A stretch of DNA of 13,165 nucleotides from an uncultured archaeon (GTDB taxonomy: Archaea; Iainarchaeota; Iainarchaeia; Iainarchaeales; CSSED10-239): the NCBI GenBank assembly GCA_964468895.1, contig CAYXWT010000011.1, positions 1-13,165 on the forward strand, read 5' to 3'. The translations under genes and the position numbers were made by a program. The notes beneath the pieces were generated by a model that was not told the DNA's origin, did no database searches, and worked only from the letters and a program-made list of their open reading frames with translations. Of the stretch, positions 47-11,310 are shown in pieces (the stretch's first letter is position 1; each line of letters starts with the position of its first letter).

Positions 47-2800
47 TTATTTATATCTTAAAAGGGCAGCAACACCACCAAAATTATAAAAAAATTGGTT
101 TCCTTCAGAAGTTTCAGTAGATATTAATTCAACTATACCACCCATTGGTTGAGTTAAATCAACAATATAATCAAAAAAATCTACTTCTTCAATTAATTCC
201 ATAGGCTGCCCACAATTAGGACATGCATGTTCTAAACTTTTTTCCACTTTTTTAATATTATCTTTATCTTTTACAATTTTAGGAATTTCTATATTACAAC
301 TAGAACATTTAAATTTTAAAATATTCCATTCAATTGCTTCAGAAACTAAAACTATACTTGCCTTACCTTGTTTAATTGACTCTATAGTTTCCAGAAAACC
401 ATATGTTGCTAATTGATTTTTTGCAACCTGTTCTAAAAACTTATTAATTAAATTTCTTTCTTTAACAATTCCTACGTCTTTTAATATATCTGTACATTTA
501 TCTAATATTTCTTTAATTCCAGATTCATTAGTGTAACAAGTATCTACAGTTCCTAAAACTTTATTTTTAATTCTATGATCTAAACTACCTTGATCAATAA
601 AAGCTTGTTTAGTAAGACCAGGTCCACCAAAAACCATACCTTTGAATTTAGCTAAACCAACATAAGAAGTATTTATTCTCTCAGCAACTCTTTTATAAAA
701 ATCTTGAGCAGCTTTTTCTCTTAATCTTTCAAAACGAGCAGCTGAATTATGTACCATAATACCATTTGCTAAAAAGTTTTTATTTTTTATAGAAATATCT
801 ATCATTTTTGTTTTACCAGTAGTTATTTTTATATCTTTAATTCTTACAGGTAGTAATGGTATATTATAAATTTTTAATAATTCATAATATAATTCTTTGT
901 TTTTAATATTTTTTAAAATTGAATCTTTAAATATTTCTTTACTCATCTTTCTTTTATTATTAAAAAAAGAACTTACTTTTGGAAATAACTCTAAATTACA
1001 ATTATATTTTTCAATAATTTTTCTTATATATTTACCAGACTTGAAAATTTGTCTACTATAACTTGTCTTAGATTTCATTTTCAAAATATTATCTAACTTA
1101 TTACTTTTCTCTTTAAACGTAAATCCAATTTTTTCTTTAAATAATTCTATAGATTTTCTTTCAGAAATACTAATAGTAAACTTAGGATTATTTGAGTATT
1201 TATTAGCTCTATTATCATATTCAAATAAAGAACTAATTATTGAAAATCTTAATAATAAAAGTTGCATTTCTGTAGCTAACTTTTTATTATTTACAGAAAA
1301 ACCAACACTTTTTCTATTTTTGTTAATATACCCTTCAGCATCATATATTCCTCTTAAAAAACCACCTATAACACTTACATTTGATTTACAAATTTTATTA
1401 GGTACTCTTGAATCCAAAGCTTTTTTAATTTCTGGAAAGTTTTGTTTTATAAATCTAACAAGCGGTCTACTAGTAAATCTTAATTGATGATAATTCTTAG
1501 ATTCTCTAAACCTATAACTACTACAAATATTAAAATAAGTATCATAGGTTTTTTTATAGTGTAAAGCAACTTCTTTGTTTTGTTCAAAAAAAGAAATTCT
1601 ATCTACCTCTAAACAACCATCCCCTATAAGATATCCTATAAACTTTGCAAAAATTGGATCTAAAATTTTAGGCAACTCAATATTTTCTAATTCATTCTTA
1701 CTAGTAAAGTTTTTTAAAAAATTGGTATAATTAACATTTAATTTTCCACAAATATTTTTAATATTTTGGGGTCTTATATTTTGTTTACCTAACTCTATTT
1801 TAGAAATTGTAGTTGGACTTAAATTTAATAATCCAGACAAATCTTTTTGAGTTAATTTTAATTTGAGTCGTTTATTTTTTAGTAAACCTCCTCCTTTTTT
1901 AGAAATACCTAAAGAATTATAATTTTCTTTAATATTTAATAATTGCTTTTTTCCTTTTGTAATTATTATTTCTGGAACTATAAGATAATCTTCTGTTGTT
2001 AAATCTTTTGCTTTTTTTTCAATAATATCATCAAAATTAGTCACAAACAAAACATGATCTTCACTACATTCTATCTCTAACCTTGGACATTTTGTAATTA
2101 TTTTATAAGTTTTATTTTTATTAACATTCCAAACCATATCTATTTTTGAAGATTTAGTAGTATAATTATTATTTTTAAAAATAGAGTTTATAGATTGATT
2201 ATTTTTACAATCTTCAATATCAATTAAAGACCCATTATTTTGTTGAACTAGACAATTTTTTAAACATTGGCCACCAGCACGTGTTTTACCAGGCACACCA
2301 GAAGTTGTATGATTAACAATAGTATAAGATTTACCATTTAAAATAGCAATAGTTGCTTCTCTTTTATCAATAGCAACAATACCATAAACCTCTTCACTTT
2401 GTACCAATTCTTCAAGTGGAGCTATATGAAAAGAAGAATCACACCAATATAATTTAGTTTTAAGAAGTTTAGGAGGTTCAAAAATTAAAAGTATAACATC
2501 TATTTTAGAAGGATTTTCACTTACATTTCCTGAAAATAAAACTAAACCATTTTCAGGTAATTTAAAATCAATTTGTCTTAAATAATTAATAATTCGTTTT
2601 AAAGCAGCTTGAACATTTTTTCTAGTATGTTGACTTTTAATATTAGAAGATTGACTAGATTCATCAGTTAATTGTTTAGTAACCGAACTTCTATCTGCAT
2701 TTGGAGGTAAATATAGACTAATTAATTGTGTACCTTCACCTTTATAGGATTTTATTTCTTTTAATTTTCTTTTTAATAATAATGCTTTATTTCTATTCAT
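47..2800 (-). CDS. prf1: Peptide chain release factor aRF1 precursor, interrupted by an intein
   Basis: N-extein carries NIKS (SSNIKSQ), YxCxxxF (YWCDSSF) and ends PGKTRAGGQ. C-extein starts SAARFERLREKAA and ends FGGVAALLRYK. Exteins are 180+232 aa from the track start, i.e. a 412-aa aRF1-sized product. The track start at 2806 is TTG; the ATG at 2800 (MNRNK...) is preferred. Stop is TAA at 47..49. Confidence 0.95.
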   Translation of the reverse strand: MNRNKALLLKRKLKEIKSYKGEGTQLISLYLPPNADRSSVTKQLTDESSQSSNIKSQHTRKNVQAALKRIINYLRQIDFKLPENGLVLFSGNVSENPSKIDVILLIFEPPKLLKTKLYWCDSSFHIAPLEELVQSEEVYGIVAIDKREATIAILNGKSYTIVNHTTSGVPGKTRAGGQCLKNCLVQQNNGSLIDIEDCKNNQSINSIFKNNNYTTKSSKIDMVWNVNKNKTYKIITKCPRLEIECSEDHVLFVTNFDDIIEKKAKDLTTEDYLIVPEIIITKGKKQLLNIKENYNSLGISKKGGGLLKNKRLKLKLTQKDLSGLLNLSPTTISKIELGKQNIRPQNIKNICGKLNVNYTNFLKNFTSKNELENIELPKILDPIFAKFIGYLIGDGCLEVDRISFFEQNKEVALHYKKTYDTYFNICSSYRFRESKNYHQLRFTSRPLVRFIKQNFPEIKKALDSRVPNKICKSNVSVIGGFLRGIYDAEGYINKNRKSVGFSVNNKKLATEMQLLLLRFSIISSLFEYDNRANKYSNNPKFTISISERKSIELFKEKIGFTFKEKSNKLDNILKMKSKTSYSRQIFKSGKYIRKIIEKYNCNLELFPKVSSFFNNKRKMSKEIFKDSILKNIKNKELYYELLKIYNIPLLPVRIKDIKITTGKTKMIDISIKNKNFLANGIMVHNSAARFERLREKAAQDFYKRVAERINTSYVGLAKFKGMVFGGPGLTKQAFIDQGSLDHRIKNKVLGTVDTCYTNESGIKEILDKCTDILKDVGIVKERNLINKFLEQVAKNQLATYGFLETIESIKQGKASIVLVSEAIEWNILKFKCSSCNIEIPKIVKDKDNIKKVEKSLEHACPNCGQPMELIEEVDFFDYIVDLTQPMGGIVELISTETSEGNQFFYNFGGVAALLRYK
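1106..1654 (-). other. LAGLIDADG homing-endonuclease core of the intein
   Basis: Motif 1 is IFAKFIGYLIGDGCL and motif 2 is VIGGFLRGIYDAEGYI. Both keep the acidic residue before the final Gly. They are about 95 aa apart, as in double-motif enzymes. Confidence 0.85.
1715..1885 (-). other. XRE/Cro-C1-type helix-turn-helix segment embedded in the intein
   Basis: LLKNKRLKLKLTQKDLSGLLNLSPTTISKIELGKQNIRPQNIKNICGKLNVNYTNFL (aa 308-364) follows the HTH_3 pattern. Confidence 0.7.
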
Positions 2801-2945
2801 AAACAATCTTTTTTTTAAAAATCTAAACTAAATATAATATTAGACACACTTATATTTAAATAAAAACAGTTGTGCTATGATAATAATTCAAGTATATCTT
2901 TAAATTTAAACATAAAAATCAATAATTTTATATATCTAATATATA

Positions 2946-3492: not shown

Positions 3493-4377
3493 TTACTTAT
3501 CAAACCTTATATTACTAATATAATTTTGTAATAACTTCTTTAATTTATAATTTTTAATATTTTTCAAAGAAATAGATGAATATTCATAAATTAGCTTATT
3601 ATATTCTGATACACTTTTATTATTTTTATTTACATATTTTGCAAAATAACTTATTTTTGAAATTAAAGATTTATATTTATTATAAATAGACTTTAGTTTA
3701 AATTTATTTTTAGAGATTAAATCTAAATCTAAAGGTACATCTGTATTATTATTTAAAAACTCATATACTAAACTATCTGTAGGTTCATAAGAATTTTCTA
3801 TAAGTAAACTTGTAATTTCTAATATCAGATTAATATTTTTAGAAACATTCATACTATCTAAAAAATTAACGGTCTTTTTTTTAGTATCAAAAACAGGACC
3901 TACTAAAACCCATTCTGCAGATAAACACCTTTCAGTCTGTATTTTTATTAAATTAATATTTTGAAATTTATTATTTAAAATATTTCTTTTTTTATCTAAA
4001 GTTCTTTTCAAATTTTTTAATTCTTTAATAATACAATTCAATTTCAAAAATTCACTATCACTTAAAATTTGAGTATACTGCTTAATAGATATTTTTTTCC
4101 TAACCTTATTTTTAAAAACAGCTTTACCTAAATAATAAATACCATTAGAATCTTTTTTTAAAATCTTTTTTTTAGAATCATGTACATCAAAATAAACATG
4201 AGTAATAGAAGATCTAGCACCAATAGCAGGGGCCTTAGATTTAGAAATATGCTTATATCTAACATTATTTTTTTTAGAACTTTGTTTAGATGAACGAACA
4301 TCTTTTTTTGCATTTTTAAAAACTTTATTTTTTATTTTTGCAAAAATACTATTTTCTAAATCTAACAAACAAAACAC
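3493..4377 (-). CDS. Hypothetical protein, Lys/Asn-rich, basic N-terminus, no recognised family
   Basis: Long uninterrupted ORF, co-directional and 29-38 nt downstream of the PAC2 gene. The track start is GTG at 4377. GGTG at 4375..4378 plus a 6-nt spacer points to TTG at 4368 as an alternative start. There is no internal ATG until about aa 175. Confidence 0.55.
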   Translation of the reverse strand: MFCLLDLENSIFAKIKNKVFKNAKKDVRSSKQSSKKNNVRYKHISKSKAPAIGARSSITHVYFDVHDSKKKILKKDSNGIYYLGKAVFKNKVRKKISIKQYTQILSDSEFLKLNCIIKELKNLKRTLDKKRNILNNKFQNINLIKIQTERCLSAEWVLVGPVFDTKKKTVNFLDSMNVSKNINLILEITSLLIENSYEPTDSLVYEFLNNNTDVPLDLDLISKNKFKLKSIYNKYKSLISKISYFAKYVNKNNKSVSEYNKLIYEYSSISLKNIKNYKLKKLLQNYISNIRFDK

Positions 4378-7937: not shown

Positions 7938-8138
7938 ATGAAAAACTACAAAATAAAATTTAAAAAAATAATAAATGATAAAAGAGCACAAATATCTGCA
8001 GAGATGATAATTCTTTTAGCAGCAATTATTGCCATTGTTTTATTAGTAGTAAGCCAGTTACAAAAAACTACTAAAAAAGCAAATGCAACTGTAGAAAAAA
8101 AAGCTGATAAAGTATTTGATGAAATTGAAGATATTTAA
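7938..8138 (+). CDS. Class III signal peptide (DUF361-type) pilin-like protein, 66 aa
   Basis: Lys-rich leader, then KRA|QISAEMIILLAAIIAIVLLVV. This is a prepilin-type cleavage motif with Gln at +1 and Glu at +5, followed by a hydrophobic helix. Confidence 0.8.
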   Translation: MKNYKIKFKKIINDKRAQISAEMIILLAAIIAIVLLVVSQLQKTTKKANATVEKKADKVFDEIEDI

Positions 8139-8562
8139 ATATAAATTTATAAACCTAAAAAAAATAAAAACAAATAAGGCACAAATTTCTCTTGAATATA
8201 TGTTAATATTTACAGCCTTACTAGTTATATTTGGTACAATATTATTAACAGCAACAAACATCTATAATAAAAATCTTAATATTATGGATAATCAGGAATT
8301 AAAAAACACTTCAGAAAACATTCAAAAAATTATTAACTTTCAAGAACTACAAGTAAGTTCTATTTATAACATAAAAATTAATCCACAAAATTGTTGGAAA
8401 TTTACAAAAATAAACAACAATTCTTTTTATGTAGAAAATCAAAAAAAAATATATGAAATAAATAGTAATTATAAAATAAATATAAGTAATATAGAAATTT
8501 GTTCAAAAAAGATAATAGATATACAATTAAAAGAAAAACAATTTGATTTTAAATTTAATTAA
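8119..8562 (+). CDS. Class III signal peptide (DUF361-type) pilin-like protein, 147 aa
   Basis: Leader ...KTNKA|QISLEYMLIFTALLVIFGTILL carries the same motif as the upstream gene. ATG at 8119 (the track TTG at 8116 is unnecessary). It overlaps the previous gene by 20 nt. Confidence 0.75.
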   Translation: MKLKIFKYKFINLKKIKTNKAQISLEYMLIFTALLVIFGTILLTATNIYNKNLNIMDNQELKNTSENIQKIINFQELQVSSIYNIKINPQNCWKFTKINNNSFYVENQKKIYEINSNYKINISNIEICSKKIIDIQLKEKQFDFKFN

Positions 8563-8576
8563 TAGTAAATAGATAT

Positions 8577-9089
8577 ATGGATATTAATCTTTTTTTATCA
8601 ACAATTTTATTTCCAGGAATTATTTTTCACGAACTTGGTCATGTAATAGCATGTTTATTTTTAGGTGTACCTATAGAAAAAATAAAATGGTGTGGTAAAG
8701 ATGGAGGCTATGTTATACATAAAGATTCTAAACCTTATAAAAATATAATAATTGCCTTAATACCTTTTATTTTTAATATATTTATATCCTTAATTTTAGC
8801 AAGAATATATTTATTAAATACAGATATAATTATTAGAATTATATGCGTATGGTTTGCAATTTCAGCTTTATTTTTTTGTGTACCTAGTAGCCAAGATGCA
8901 CAAAATGTATTTAATGCTCTTAAAGAAAATTATTCTAAAACAAACATATTACAAATTTTACTAAATATAATATTTCTACCTTTAACAATAATTATACTAA
9001 TAATTAGTTTTTTCTTTAAAATAATACATAATTCATTGTATTTTAGAATAATTTTAATATTAATTTGGCTATTTTTATTTATAATCTAA
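8577..9089 (+). CDS. Polytopic membrane protein with HExxH motif (M50B/DUF3267-like putative zinc metallopeptidase)
   Basis: FHELGHVIACLFLGVPIEKIKWCGKDGGYVIH lies in or next to the first hydrophobic segment. There are about 5 predicted TM stretches. The conserved-looking PSSQDAQN could supply a third metal ligand. It starts 14 nt after the second pilin gene. Confidence 0.6.
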   Translation: MDINLFLSTILFPGIIFHELGHVIACLFLGVPIEKIKWCGKDGGYVIHKDSKPYKNIIIALIPFIFNIFISLILARIYLLNTDIIIRIICVWFAISALFFCVPSSQDAQNVFNALKENYSKTNILQILLNIIFLPLTIIILIISFFFKIIHNSLYFRIILILIWLFLFII

Positions 9090-9814: not shown

Positions 9815-10285
9815 ATGAAACAAAATTTATTTATATTTATTGTGATAACCATGATAATATCTAATTCTATATGTGCTTATGATAATTATTATTATTCTAA
9901 TAATGAAGGTGACTATGCACTTAAAGTATTAGGTTTTGGTTATGATGATTCATACAACTACCAAAATTATAACTCAAAAGATTATCAACAATGGGAAGAT
10001 CCTTCAAATTTATATTATAAACCAACATTTTCTCAAAAGATTTATTTAAAAATGGATGGTTTTAAAACCATAGATACTTTATTTTGGGAAGTTTATAATA
10101 ATAAAATGAGTGATGTACAAGTATATGGAAATCCAGCTTATCCTGATAGTATAGATTACATAAATGAATATGAACAAATCAGGGTTTATCCTAAAGAACC
10201 TTATAATTTTAAATATTGGAAAAATACATATTATGATTTTGAAATAATAGAATCTGAAAACTATTTAGGACCAAAAACAAACTAA
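9815..10285 (+). CDS. Secreted hypothetical protein, extremely Tyr-rich
   Basis: N-terminal signal-like segment MKQNLFIFIVITMIISNSICA. 24 Tyr in 156 aa by my count. GAGGT at 9804..9808 lies 6 nt before the ATG. Confidence 0.6.
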   Translation: MKQNLFIFIVITMIISNSICAYDNYYYSNNEGDYALKVLGFGYDDSYNYQNYNSKDYQQWEDPSNLYYKPTFSQKIYLKMDGFKTIDTLFWEVYNNKMSDVQVYGNPAYPDSIDYINEYEQIRVYPKEPYNFKYWKNTYYDFEIIESENYLGPKTN

Positions 10286-11310
10286 ATTTTAAATCTTAAA
10301 ATACCAATAATTCCACCAAAAGAATTTAAGGTTTTAGATATATTTTCATGAGTATTATCAACAACATGAACCTTAGTTTTAATTTGTTCAGATTTTCTAA
10401 TTAAATTTTGTATATTGTCAATGTCTTTTTTCCATAATCTTTCAGATATTAAAATATCTTCTATAGCTCCAAATTCAATAGCTTTACTTATTTCTTTCAA
10501 ACCATAAATTGCTTTTTGATTATTTTTACCAAGATTTTCTAAAAATAAATTTATCAAATTATTTTCTTTATAAATTATAGAATTTTTAAAAAACTTAGAC
10601 ACTTCTTTTTTATTAAATAATTCATTAATTGCAGAATTACTTATATTTTGAATATTTACTTCTAATATATTTAATTTAGAATTTTTATTTTTAAAGTATT
10701 CTCTAAATCTAGATTTAGCTTTTCCAGGTCCTGCAATGATAATTTGAAAATCATATTTTTCAATTAAATTATAAATATTATCAAAGTAATCTGTTTCTTT
10801 ATAATTTGTAGCATAACGTTTACCACCTCTATTAGATTCTATTTTTGCAAGTAATTTGTTTTGAATATTATCTAATTTAAATATATTTGCAAAATCATTA
10901 TCTAAAGCTATAATAACAACATTTGTAGAAATTTGTGATGACTTTTTTAACAAGTTGATTTCATAATCAAACAATTCATTTTTTTTAATAGTATAAAAAC
11001 TATCTAATTCAATTTCCAAAGTATGGTGCTCACCTAAAGGTGCAAATTCACAAGGTTTCGAATCAATAATTAAACCAGTAAATCTTAAAGAATTAAGTTC
11101 TGAAGAAAAATCAAATTTTTCTATATTTAAAGTTACAAACACAGGTTTTCTAACAGAATCGCTAGAACTATCTTGTCTTTGTCTTCTATAACTTCTACCA
11201 CTAATAATATCATTTATATTTAAAATATTTTTTATAGTCCAAAGATCTTCTAAAGTTTGAGGAGCAAACTTTATAGTTTTAGTTTTTTTATCTAAATATA
11301 ATATTTTCAT
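10282..11310 (-). CDS. pelA: mRNA surveillance protein Pelota (aRF1 paralog)
   Basis: MKILYLDKKTKTIKFAPQTLEDLWTIKNILNINDIISG...LRFTGLII N-domain pattern. C-terminus FGGIIGILRFKI parallels the aRF1 C-terminus. No GGQ or NIKS. Confidence 0.9.
   Translation of the reverse strand: MKILYLDKKTKTIKFAPQTLEDLWTIKNILNINDIISGRSYRRQRQDSSSDSVRKPVFVTLNIEKFDFSSELNSLRFTGLIIDSKPCEFAPLGEHHTLEIELDSFYTIKKNELFDYEINLLKKSSQISTNVVIIALDNDFANIFKLDNIQNKLLAKIESNRGGKRYATNYKETDYFDNIYNLIEKYDFQIIIAGPGKAKSRFREYFKNKNSKLNILEVNIQNISNSAINELFNKKEVSKFFKNSIIYKENNLINLFLENLGKNNQKAIYGLKEISKAIEFGAIEDILISERLWKKDIDNIQNLIRKSEQIKTKVHVVDNTHENISKTLNSFGGIIGILRFKI

Follow-up and report, generated by a model that had tools for sequence, protein, structure and literature searches.

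Closest described systems

The closest described relatives of the element reported here are archaeal class-1 inteins in which the Hint splicing domain is split by a two-motif LAGLIDADG domain, namely TliVMA/PhoVMA (7qss, 7qsu and 7qst), PI-PfuI (1dq3) and PI-TkoII (2cw7). PI-SceI, the intein of yeast VMA1 (1vde, 1lws), is likewise bifunctional, combining splicing with LAGLIDADG homing, and a DNA-recognition region outside its endonuclease core adds DNA contacts. Among translation factors, the intein-containing archaeal IF-2/aIF5B (PRK14845) is interrupted by a LAGLIDADG intein, whose insertion site lies in the GTPase P-loop. A LAGLIDADG fold and a helix-turn-helix (HTH) are also combined in one polypeptide in WhiA (3hyi), a bacterial transcription factor whose LAGLIDADG domain is degenerate and inactive and whose HTH is C-terminal.

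We analyzed a stretch of 13,165 nucleotides (the window) from a very AT-rich DPANN archaeon, in which the gene of the release factor aRF1 carries an intein. The nearest named relatives of this aRF1 are from Iainarchaeota (Diapherotrites). The intein shares Cys1, the block-B His, the terminal His-Asn and the location in a conserved functional motif of an essential host protein with the archaeal inteins named above. These were also its best matches, both in phmmer (E 6.5e-13) and in Foldseek (E 5e-23 to 1e-19, TM 0.57-0.77), where TliVMA 7qss (E 5e-23) was followed by PI-TkoII 2cw7, PI-PfuI 1dq3 and then the PI-SceI entries. However, it differs from them in its host (aRF1) and its site (GGQ/S; the slash marks the insertion point), the identity is only 11-16%, and the aRF1 intein has an extra XRE-type HTH; the phmmer match to 7qss begins only at intein residue 181. 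PI-SceI (Foldseek E about 1e-13) has a eukaryotic host and superposed poorly (rmsd about 25 Å). The additional DNA-binding region of PI-SceI lies within its Hint domain, whereas that of the aRF1 intein is a separable HTH_3 domain. Apart from aRF1 itself, no NCBIfam model matched the intein better than PRK14845 (E 6e-21, intein residues 36-456), which belongs to a different host protein; its score of 74 versus a cutoff of 756 bits limits the relatedness to the intein parts. WhiA (Foldseek E 3.6e-7) differs in having no Hint domain and in not being mobile.

The aRF1 precursor gene

The mechanically defined reading frame (47..2806, minus strand) begins with TTG at 2806 and is open over 919 codons. 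The likely start of aRF1 is the ATG rather than this TTG, so that the precursor would have 917 aa and the spliced product 410 aa (Table 1). One database protein identical to that of the window (P0241) and one with a single different residue (P0001, V356I) both begin at the Met of this ATG. The original prediction was correct in the junctions and the extein layout, while its sizes of 919 aa for the reading frame and 412 aa for the product should probably be replaced by these values. The translation of 47..2806 reads ...PGKTRAGGQ/CLKNCLVQQ...FLANGIMVHN/SAARFERLREKAA...FGGVAALLRYK.

The assignment to aRF1 was based on NCBIfam TIGR03676 (E 1.6e-126, 422 bits versus a cutoff of 234.7), which matched in two stretches flanking the intein. 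In the precursor, Pfam detected eRF1_1 (E 8e-15), eRF1_2 (E 6e-30, again in two stretches) and eRF1_3 (E 1e-17). By these Pfam matches and the TIGR03676 equivalog cutoff, the three-domain architecture of class-I aRF1/eRF1 is present. Rfam and tRNA scans of the window detected no further features.

Table 1. Features of the intein-containing aRF1 gene in the window.
Feature	Position	Strand	Remark
aRF1 precursor gene	47..2800	-	917 aa; ATG 2798..2800, stop codon 47..49
N-extein	2267..2800	-	178 aa; aRF1 domain N and start of domain M
NIKS stop-codon recognition motif	2633..2644	-	in N-extein
YxCxxxF motif	2429..2449	-	YWCDSSF; in N-extein
GGQ hydrolysis motif	2267..2275	-	end of N-extein
Intein	746..2266	-	507 aa (CLKNC...MVHN), residues 181-687 of the 919-codon frame; Hint interrupted by HTH module and LAGLIDADG endonuclease domain
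Cys1	2264..2266	-	TGT; intein N-terminal nucleophile
Block B	2054..2065	-	S68-E-D-H71; equivalent of TxxH with Ser for Thr
XRE-type HTH module	1697..1921	-	intein residues 116-190; between N-terminal Hint part and endonuclease domain
Pfam HTH_3 core	1730..1882	-
LAGLIDADG motif 1	1616..1642	-	FIGYLIGDG; acidic D216
LAGLIDADG motif 2	1331..1357	-	LRGIYDAEG; acidic E311
Blocks F and G	746..799	-	DISIKNKNFLANGIMVHN; His506-Asn507 at end
C-extein	47..745	-	232 aa and stop; remainder of domain M, then domain C
Ser+1	743..745	-	nucleophile (native GGQ-S motif); first residue of C-extein
CxxC...CxxC zinc-ribbon insert	212..307	-	within domain C

Splicing domain and junction residues

The profile searches, which had been specified in advance, were significant for both parts of the intein, with Pfam Intein_splicing at E 4e-17 (65 bits versus a cutoff of 35.8) and LAGLIDADG_3 at E 2e-19 to 5e-19. 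TIGR01443 (intein_Cterm) reached 17-18 bits versus a cutoff of 15.6. In an alignment of 84 sequences, C1, S68, H71, D490, H506 and N507 were invariant and Ser+1 was kept in at least 90% of the homologues. The intein therefore has the Cys1, block B His, block F Asp, His-Asn and Ser+1 of class 1, and Ser+1 is native to the GGQS motif. The AF2 model of the intein (pLDDT 94.7, pTM 0.92) displayed beta-strand N- and C-terminal parts, and Foldseek with this model matched solved inteins over the full length. Together with the empty allele described below, the profiles and the predicted structure confirm that this is a real, intact, full-length class-1 LAGLIDADG intein located directly after the GGQ of aRF1, as originally predicted. 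Judged from its sequence, the intein is expected to be active in splicing.

Decay does occur in this family, since GGQ and the first residues of the intein are missing from one homologue (P0109). An insert that does not splice in the window, be it a permanent domain insertion, a pseudogene or an assembly chimera, is nevertheless barely credible. The 919-codon frame is open, and all nucleophiles and assisting residues are intact and invariant across the homologues (Ser+1 at the frequency given above). As a permanent insertion, 507 extra residues in the GGQ loop would be expected to keep it from reaching the peptidyl-transferase centre. An assembly chimera was ruled out by an independent contig (L002), which is 99.9% identical over 2864 nt, and by the same junctions in more than 100 independently assembled homologues.

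Intein-free allele and insertion site

An intein-free allele (P0121/L001) was identified in a sibling metagenome sample. It is 93% (amino acids) and 93.8% (nucleotides) identical to the exteins of the window, with 171 of the 178 residues identical in the N-extein and about 94% identity in the C-extein. The allele is contiguous across the site (...RAGGQSAARFERL...), and in blastn of L001 against the window the breakpoints were exactly 2266 and 745, the boundaries of the intein. The empty site is GTTCCAGGAAAGAGTCGTGCTGGTGGTCAA/TCGGCAGCTCGTTTTGAAAGA in L001 and GTGCCTGGTAAAACACGTGCTGGTGGCCAA/TCAGCTGCTCGTTTTGAAAGA in the reconstructed window-type sequence, in agreement with the intein-less target that had been proposed. 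Among the best 120 matches of the spliced product 119 were intein-free, and every intein-free one displayed GGQ-S; both intein-bearing and intein-free alleles of the GGQ/S site are present in the databases.

Between the intein-plus and intein-minus alleles, which differ by 6.2% overall, 12 substitutions are clustered at -45..+9 nt around the insertion site, a post hoc observation with an uncorrected p of about 1e-4. Ten of them are synonymous single-base changes, and the other two share one codon and change Thr to Ser. Either co-conversion or resistance of the empty allele would be compatible with the cluster.

Endonuclease and HTH modules

The two LAGLIDADG motifs and their acidic residues, both part of the original prediction, are well conserved in the 84-sequence alignment. 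In motif 1, G211, Y212 and G217 were invariant and G215 and D216 were kept in at least 90%; in motif 2, G306, D309 and A310 were invariant and E311 and G312 were kept in at least 90%. The fold of the endonuclease resembles I-DmoI (Foldseek, TMt about 0.7). Indirect evidence that the endonuclease may cleave intein-less aRF1 genes in a site-specific manner comes from the empty allele, the discordance between intein and extein similarities and the substitution cluster around the insertion point.

The HTH module, which was absent from the original prediction, was detected by HTH_3 with E 1.6e-11 (46 bits versus a cutoff of 23 with the intein alone). Intein residues 117-189 matched the controller protein C.BclI (2b5a) in phmmer (E 8.5e-6), and AF2 predicted a helical bundle at residues 123-187. 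Among homologues the module is a clean presence/absence indel of about 75 aa and is dispensable in relatives. The HTH would probably extend the DNA recognition of the endonuclease.

Distribution, family history and composition

The GGQ/C junction was found in 119 of the 120 best homologues, and HN/S was recovered by a simple pattern in 101. Insertions at the GGQ site were detected in hundreds of public metagenome-derived archaeal proteins from several phyla, with hosts in Woese-/Nanoarchaeota, Iainarchaeota, Aenigmat- and Micrarchaeota, one Asbonarchaeaceae MAG and Thaumarchaeota, and are widespread among DPANN archaea. The variants included full-length inteins, HTH-less inteins of 426-439 aa, an endonuclease-degenerate form of about 271 aa (P0144), mini forms of 141 aa (L067) and 144 aa (L073), and empty alleles, which together represent all stages of a homing cycle. 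As a separate observation, one clade of classical aRF1s has GGW, GGM or GGF in place of GGQ. If these aRF1s without the catalytic Gln are the sole release factor there, this would outweigh the intein in importance.

The similarities of inteins and exteins to those of the window were discordant. In a first group, mostly Diapherotrites/Iainarchaeota where named, the exteins were about 47-54% and the inteins 40-48% identical to the window. In a second group, mostly named as Woese-/Nanoarchaeota, the exteins were only 36-43% identical while the inteins reached 49-56.5%. These sequence comparisons indicate horizontal transfer in the history of the aRF1 intein family. A scan of IMG/VR for a viral vector found only three distant endonuclease relatives (26-29%) and zero aRF1 inteins.

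The exteins had a higher GC content than the intein (27% versus 21%), as had been noticed originally, and codon positions 1 and 2 account for the difference. The GC3 was low throughout, with 0.10 in the intein, 0.05-0.08 in the exteins and 0.07-0.13 in the neighbouring genes. Since GC3 is equally low everywhere, the contrast reflects amino-acid constraint, and a recent foreign origin could be ruled out as its explanation.

This composition also bears on whether the intein is still mobile. Splicing may have been kept with an inactive endonuclease, so that the intein is only inherited vertically, because it is hard to delete precisely from a catalytic loop that is essential. Many inteins splice but have no active endonuclease, the composition of this one (GC3 0.10) has fully converged on that of the host, and the nearest database intein of a different organism shares only 64% identity, so that a recent homing event is not documented. 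We still consider this possibility unlikely, because both acidic residues of the LAGLIDADG motifs are present and kept in at least 90% of the homologues, the discordance of inteins and exteins points to past lateral movement in the family, and the empty allele of the sibling sample differs mainly by synonymous changes near the target site.

Proposed mode of action

Our preferred reading, to which we assign a probability of about 0.88, is that of a canonical selfish class-1 intein, inserted in aRF1 at GGQ/S and equipped with a LAGLIDADG homing endonuclease plus an XRE-type HTH as accessory module. The aRF1 gene would be translated into the 917-aa precursor, and the Hint domain would then splice in four steps, namely the N-S acyl shift at Cys1, transesterification to Ser+1, cyclisation of Asn507 and an O-N shift. 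The products would be aRF1 of 410 aa, its GGQS loop intact, and the free intein of 58 kDa. The free intein would act as a site-specific endonuclease on the GGQ/S-coding sequence of intein-less aRF1 alleles, and repair from the intein-bearing copy would spread the element (homing). Such a selfish passenger would survive because the site is indispensable and slowly evolving and because splicing is efficient.

It had also been proposed that the unspliced precursor could be an inactive competitor and make termination dependent on splicing. Slow or environment-responsive splicing would be rate-limiting or conditional in vivo and set the amount of active aRF1, while the precursor, with its domains N and C, would compete for ribosomal A sites and titrate terminating ribosomes, so that termination capacity or stop-codon readthrough would depend on splicing; the released HTH-bearing intein could in addition, or instead, be a DNA-binding regulator. 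With the intein in the catalytic GGQ loop, the precursor would indeed be expected to fail at peptidyl-tRNA hydrolysis, given the role of GGQ. Among other archaeal inteins, that of RadA, for example, is a documented case of conditional splicing (PMC11409957), and position 5 of the window intein is a second Cys. However, Cys5 is confined to the closest relatives, ruling out a redox switch through Cys1 and Cys5 (CLKNC), and the splicing residues are canonical and invariant, with ordinary residues at -1 and +1. Moreover, close relatives are intein-free (P0121) and others have mini or degenerate forms, so that the host does not depend on the intein, and selection would act against a dominant-negative precursor if the factor is essential. 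The analysis gave no support to regulation by splicing, and we regard it as very improbable.

Novelty and implications

In the literature searched (inteins in combination with release-factor, GGQ and DPANN topics), no described intein of aRF1 or eRF1 was found. The Anaeramoeba intein paper contains no release-factor intein. The survey of Novikova et al. (2015; PMC4760082) names no release factor in its main text and reports few inteins in core transcription and translation components. The suggestion that the insertion site was undescribed thus stands for the literature, to which the GGQ host site of aRF1 is apparently new. It does not extend to the databases, with their hundreds of public proteins, some of which are automatically annotated in IMG as "eRF1/intein/homing endonuclease"; the element itself is of a known kind and not rare.

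The names given by NCBI to many of these aRF1s are "LAGLIDADG family homing endonuclease", "helix-turn-helix domain-containing protein" or "hypothetical protein". In many MAGs, these names hide aRF1, which serves as a marker gene in phylogenomics.

With this intein, a translation termination factor that is split at its catalytic GGQ loop joins the list of intein hosts. The family is also a source of numerous diverged inteins for protein engineering, all of them compatible with a -1 Gln and a +1 Ser and some of them lacking the separable HTH. The near-identical empty allele in a sibling sample makes homing directly testable in uncultivated archaea.

Organization of the aRF1 gene and its neighbourhood

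The longest open reading frame of the window encodes an aRF1 interrupted by an insert of 507 residues. As had been read from the DNA alone, the N-terminal aRF1 part ends ...PGKTRAGGQ, the insert runs from CLKNC... to ...GIMVHN, and the C-terminal part begins with SAARFERLREKAA; the translation matched this reading exactly. Pfam profile searches with the whole protein detected eRF1_1 (E 8e-15), eRF1_2 in two stretches (E 6e-30) and eRF1_3 (E 1e-17), together with the anticipated Intein_splicing (E 4e-17) and LAGLIDADG_3 (E 5e-19) and an HTH_3 domain (E 1.6e-11) that had been overlooked. E-values this low exclude chance as the source of these matches. The NCBIfam aRF1 equivalog TIGR03676 scored 422 bits (cutoff 234.7), also in two stretches flanking the insert. 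Translation probably starts at an ATG downstream of the TTG, and two database proteins of 917 residues, P0241 (identical) and P0001 (one substitution), begin at the Met encoded there. With this start the precursor has 917 residues and the spliced product 410 aa, so the original prediction of a normal-sized aRF1 stands with its length corrected from 412 aa.

Coordinates in the window of aRF1, its intein and the other features discussed
Feature	Position	Strand	Remarks
aRF1 ORF	47..2806	-	919 codons counted from TTG
Probable aRF1 start	2798..2800		ATG
Intein	746..2266	-	ORF residues 181-687
Zinc-ribbon-like insert	212..307	-	CSSC...CPNC, domain C of the C-extein
Block 1 shared with L001	2899-2266		L001 1-634, 94.8% identity
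Block 2 shared with L001	745-17		L001 634-1362, 92.7% identity
Substitution cluster	2267..2311, 737..745		54 nt, -45..+9 of the insertion point
Lys/Asn-rich ORF	3493..4377	-	294 aa, 19% GC, no Pfam match
Pilin-like ORF	8116..8562	+	148 aa, archaeal class III (pilin-type) signal peptide
M50-like membrane protease	8577..9089		after the pilin-like ORF
Pelota/Dom34 homologue	10282..11310	-	342 aa, eRF1_1 and eRF1_3

The neighbours of aRF1 are archaeal housekeeping genes, for a phosphoribosyltransferase, a PAC2 proteasome-assembly chaperone, aIF2-alpha, GINS51, the primase small subunit, the pilin-like protein, the M50-like protease, Pelota and iPGM. Pelota, about 7.5 kb from aRF1, is a paralogue without GGQ and carries no intein. 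Scans for tRNA genes and Rfam families found none in the window. The GC content of 22% and the closest named aRF1 relatives, from Diapherotrites/Iainarchaeota, identify the window as a DPANN chromosome fragment.

Conserved residues and predicted fold of the intein

Conservation was evaluated by aligning the intein to 83 full-length homologues. The splicing residues Cys1, Ser68 and His71 of block B (SEDH in the window), Asp490 of block F and His506-Asn507 were invariant, and Ser directly after the intein was conserved at ≥90%. In the LAGLIDADG cores G211, Y212, G217, G306, D309 and A310 were invariant, while G215, G312 and the acidic residues D216 and E311 were conserved at ≥90%. The class-1 nucleophiles and the two LAGLIDADG motifs with their acidic residues were therefore found as originally described, and on sequence grounds both the conserved class-1 splicing apparatus and the two-motif endonuclease are intact.

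A highly confident AlphaFold2 model built from this alignment (mean pLDDT 94.7, pTM 0.92) displayed beta-rich N- and C-terminal segments (Hint), an HTH and an alpha/beta endonuclease core. In a Foldseek search against the PDB the best matches were homing-endonuclease inteins, with TliVMA (7qss, E 4.7e-23) listed first, followed by PI-TkoII (2cw7), PI-PfuI (1dq3), PhoVMA (7qst) and PI-SceI entries, and then by free-standing LAGLIDADG enzymes such as I-DmoI and by WhiA. The modelled HTH is a five-helix bundle (residues 123-187), and in a sequence search residues 117-189 resembled C.BclI, an XRE-type controller protein (2b5a, E 8.5e-6). The HTH is a separable module, and WhiA, which combines HTH and LAGLIDADG folds, offers a precedent for the combination.

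Exact insertion at a site contiguous in an empty allele

With the in-silico spliced product as query, the best intein-free match was P0121, an aRF1 of 410 aa with 93% identity (N-extein 171/178 residues, C-extein about 94%), which is continuous across the insertion site (...GKSRAGGQSAARFERL...). Its contig L001 (ENA ERZ27316532) aligned to the window as two blocks whose ends at 2266 and 745 make the 1521-bp difference exactly equal to the intein, and the non-coding DNA upstream of aRF1 is orthologous as well. An intein-bearing contig (L002, ENA ERZ27316679, a neighbouring accession number) was 99.9% identical to the window. Alleles with (L002 and the homologues) and without (P0121) an insertion at GGQ/S are thus both represented, and these alignments show exact, in-frame insertion of the intein at a position that a near-identical relative reads through without a break. 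Among the 120 best matches to the spliced product 119 were intein-free, all with GGQ-S. Hence the Ser in the position of the +1 nucleophile is native to the host, a conserved residue of the GGQS loop.

The window and the empty allele differ by 12 substitutions within 54 nt around the insertion point, ten being synonymous single-base changes and the other two lying in one codon (Thr to Ser). Against the gene-wide substitution rate of 6.2% this cluster has a binomial p of about 1e-4 for a stretch chosen post hoc. Co-conversion of donor flanks would account for it, as would an empty allele drifting from, or resisting, the endonuclease target.

The exteins had been described as more GC-rich than the intein. 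This contrast is real (26.9-27.3% vs 20.9%; window 22.0%) but confined to codon positions 1 and 2, and GC3 is low throughout (intein 0.10, exteins 0.05-0.08, neighbouring genes 0.07-0.13). The composition of the intein is fully converged on that of its host, and the difference in GC mirrors which amino acids a conserved protein contains.

Proposed splicing and homing

By the established intein mechanism, the precursor would splice itself through a Cys1 thioester, attack by Ser+1, cyclisation of Asn507 and an O-N shift, yielding normal aRF1 and liberating the 58-kDa endonuclease. The latter would cut empty alleles at the GGQ/S-coding sequence, and repair would copy the intein into them. The HTH most plausibly provides DNA contacts beyond the LAGLIDADG saddle, by analogy with the DNA-recognition region of PI-SceI; it would be accessory, since relatives manage without it.

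The GGQ motif has to reach the peptidyl-transferase centre, so a body of 507 residues in this loop should leave the precursor catalytically dead. The original prediction went further, proposing that the precursor could act as an inactive competitor and make termination capacity depend on splicing. Nothing favouring this was found, and we consider it very improbable: the junctions are canonical, Cys5, the sole unusual feature of the intein, is not conserved, and close relatives survive without the intein or with decayed ones.

Size classes and decay within the family

At least 342 relatives of the precursor were present in the databases (E≤1e-5). Among the 120 best, the GGQ/C junction occurred in 119, and a simple pattern picked up the HN/S junction in 101, the remaining rows being mostly pattern artefacts. 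The inteins fall into a class of about 498-510 aa with the HTH and one of 426-439 aa without it, and this absence is a clean indel of about 75 residues, seen even in P0004 and P0007 among the window's nearest relatives. In P0144 (about 271 aa) the Hint parts and the second endonuclease half are retained but the HTH and LAGLIDADG motif 1 are gone, and mini-inteins of 141 aa (L067) and 144 aa (L073) occupy the same site. The NCBI protein P0109 (888 aa) has lost both GGQ and the initial ~20 residues of the intein (...GHFSEAGNPAAVKSVDF...); it resembles a decayed precursor that does not splice and is possibly a pseudogene. An exhaustive HMMER search covering 1.84 billion cluster representatives retrieved 2477 sequences related to the intein at E≤1e-3, with 69 of them at E≤1e-30. 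Nearly all of the strongest matches were aRF1 precursors, and the weaker ones lay in much longer proteins, taken to be putative other intein hosts.

Taxonomic spread and horizontal movement

A scan of GTDB species representatives, in which all counts are lower bounds, located the GGQ/C intein, among the matches listed, in Woesearchaeota/Nanoarchaeota, Aenigmatarchaeota and Thaumarchaeota, in Iainarchaeota and Micrarchaeota, each with a complete genome among the carriers (Ca. Forterrea multitransposorum, CP045477, and Ca. Fermentimicrarchaeum limneticum, CP058998, respectively), and in one MAG of Asbonarchaeaceae (L033), which we take to be an Asgard lineage. An IMG/VR scan found no aRF1 intein in viral sequences.

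The homologues separated into two groups. Where named, the first is mostly Diapherotrites/Iainarchaeota (extein about 404-418 aa; identity to the window about 47-54% for exteins and 40-48% for inteins) and the second mostly Woese-/Nanoarchaeota (about 363-374 aa with two outliers; 36-43% and 49-56.5%). Within the second group, identity to the window is higher for the intein than for the essential host protein, and over all homologues compared the two identities gave r = -0.13. These values are a signature of horizontal intein movement.

The exteins also differ in length. The window aRF1 is of a 410-aa type with a zinc-ribbon-like insert in domain C, and CxxC pairs occur in the matching region of L033, L039 (Thaumarchaeota) and L046 (Aenigmatarchaeota); the type of about 365 aa, found mostly under Woese-/Nanoarchaeota names, has about 45 residues fewer.

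aRF1s without the catalytic Gln and a second intein site

The catalytic GGQ motif is otherwise universally conserved. Of 47 cluster representatives whose intein lies at this site, 35 have Q at -1, 5 have W, 4 M, 2 F and 1 S, and the codons of three GTDB loci with non-Gln residues are genuinely TGG and ATG. The Gln-less aRF1s (loci L029, L046 and L054; proteins P0262, P0264, P0274, P0280, P0284, P0286, P0290, P0292, P0296, P0302, P0305, P0313 and P0388-P0507) form a large clade, classical in its three-domain layout, with GGW, GGM or GGF (GGS in one representative) in place of GGQ. Named members are mostly Aenigmatarchaeota, with one labelled Woesearchaeota, and some carry the intein while others do not.

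GGQ was found nowhere in the 120 closest intein-free relatives of the spliced L046 extein, which read GGWSQ (75), GGWSA (33), GGMSQ (10), GGFSQ (1) and GGMSS (1). Gln is thus present at +2 in 86/120 and absent in 34/120 (GGWSA, GGMSS). NIKS is intact in 112/120, and YxCxxxF in all tabulated. The two Gln-less members tested scored 460 and 474 bits with TIGR03676, above the canonical P0121 (454), and Gln-less and GGQ-type aRF1s share 43-53% identity, the same as Gln-less members among themselves. Literature pairing GGQ with Aenigma* yielded no mention of this clade. The window aRF1 itself has GGQ, and its reading is unaffected. The presence of the intein at GGW, GGM, GGF and GGS loops shows that its site is set by loop position and not by the Gln.

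The aRF1 of a Thaumarchaeota MAG (L039, VBPK01000067.1) contains two inteins, at GGQ/S and inside YxCxxxF (...YLYM/CVAPET...FLVHN/CDDHY...). Inteins therefore occupy no fewer than two sites in aRF1, each within a functional motif. P0343 is similar to L039 in length and GGQ-site junction.

Relation to known inteins

By every sequence and structural test applied, the window element is a member of the class-1, LAGLIDADG-bearing inteins, and its presumed mechanism is ordinary. The closest known examples, the archaeal VMA, PI-PfuI and PI-TkoII inteins, share 11-16% identity with it, and it differs from them in host protein, site and the HTH_3 module. A Promethearchaeota MAG (L037, JBHLPI010000063.1) has a related HTH-plus-LAGLIDADG intein in a non-aRF1 host protein (...VIAIE/CLSPNT...ITHN/SGGMF...), so HTH-bearing inteins of this design are not confined to aRF1. 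The translation of L054, read by eye, shows an HTH-like segment C-terminal to the endonuclease domain instead of before it. From its placement in L037 and L054, the HTH looks like a mobile accessory module within the intein family.

In its main text, a 2015 survey of intein hosts among archaea names aIF2 and no release factor, and reports few inteins in translation core components (PMC4760082). Full-text literature searches found no description of an aRF1 or eRF1 intein. The suggestion that the site may be undescribed thus holds for the literature searched but not for the databases, where the aRF1 GGQ site is already present and several family members carry the IMG name "eRF1/intein/homing endonuclease". 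In NCBI, P0006, P0008, P0013, P0039, P0056, P0061, P0087 and others are named "LAGLIDADG family homing endonuclease", "helix-turn-helix domain-containing protein" or "hypothetical protein". Since many intein-bearing aRF1s of NCBI MAGs are named in this way, an essential release factor is hidden in those annotations.
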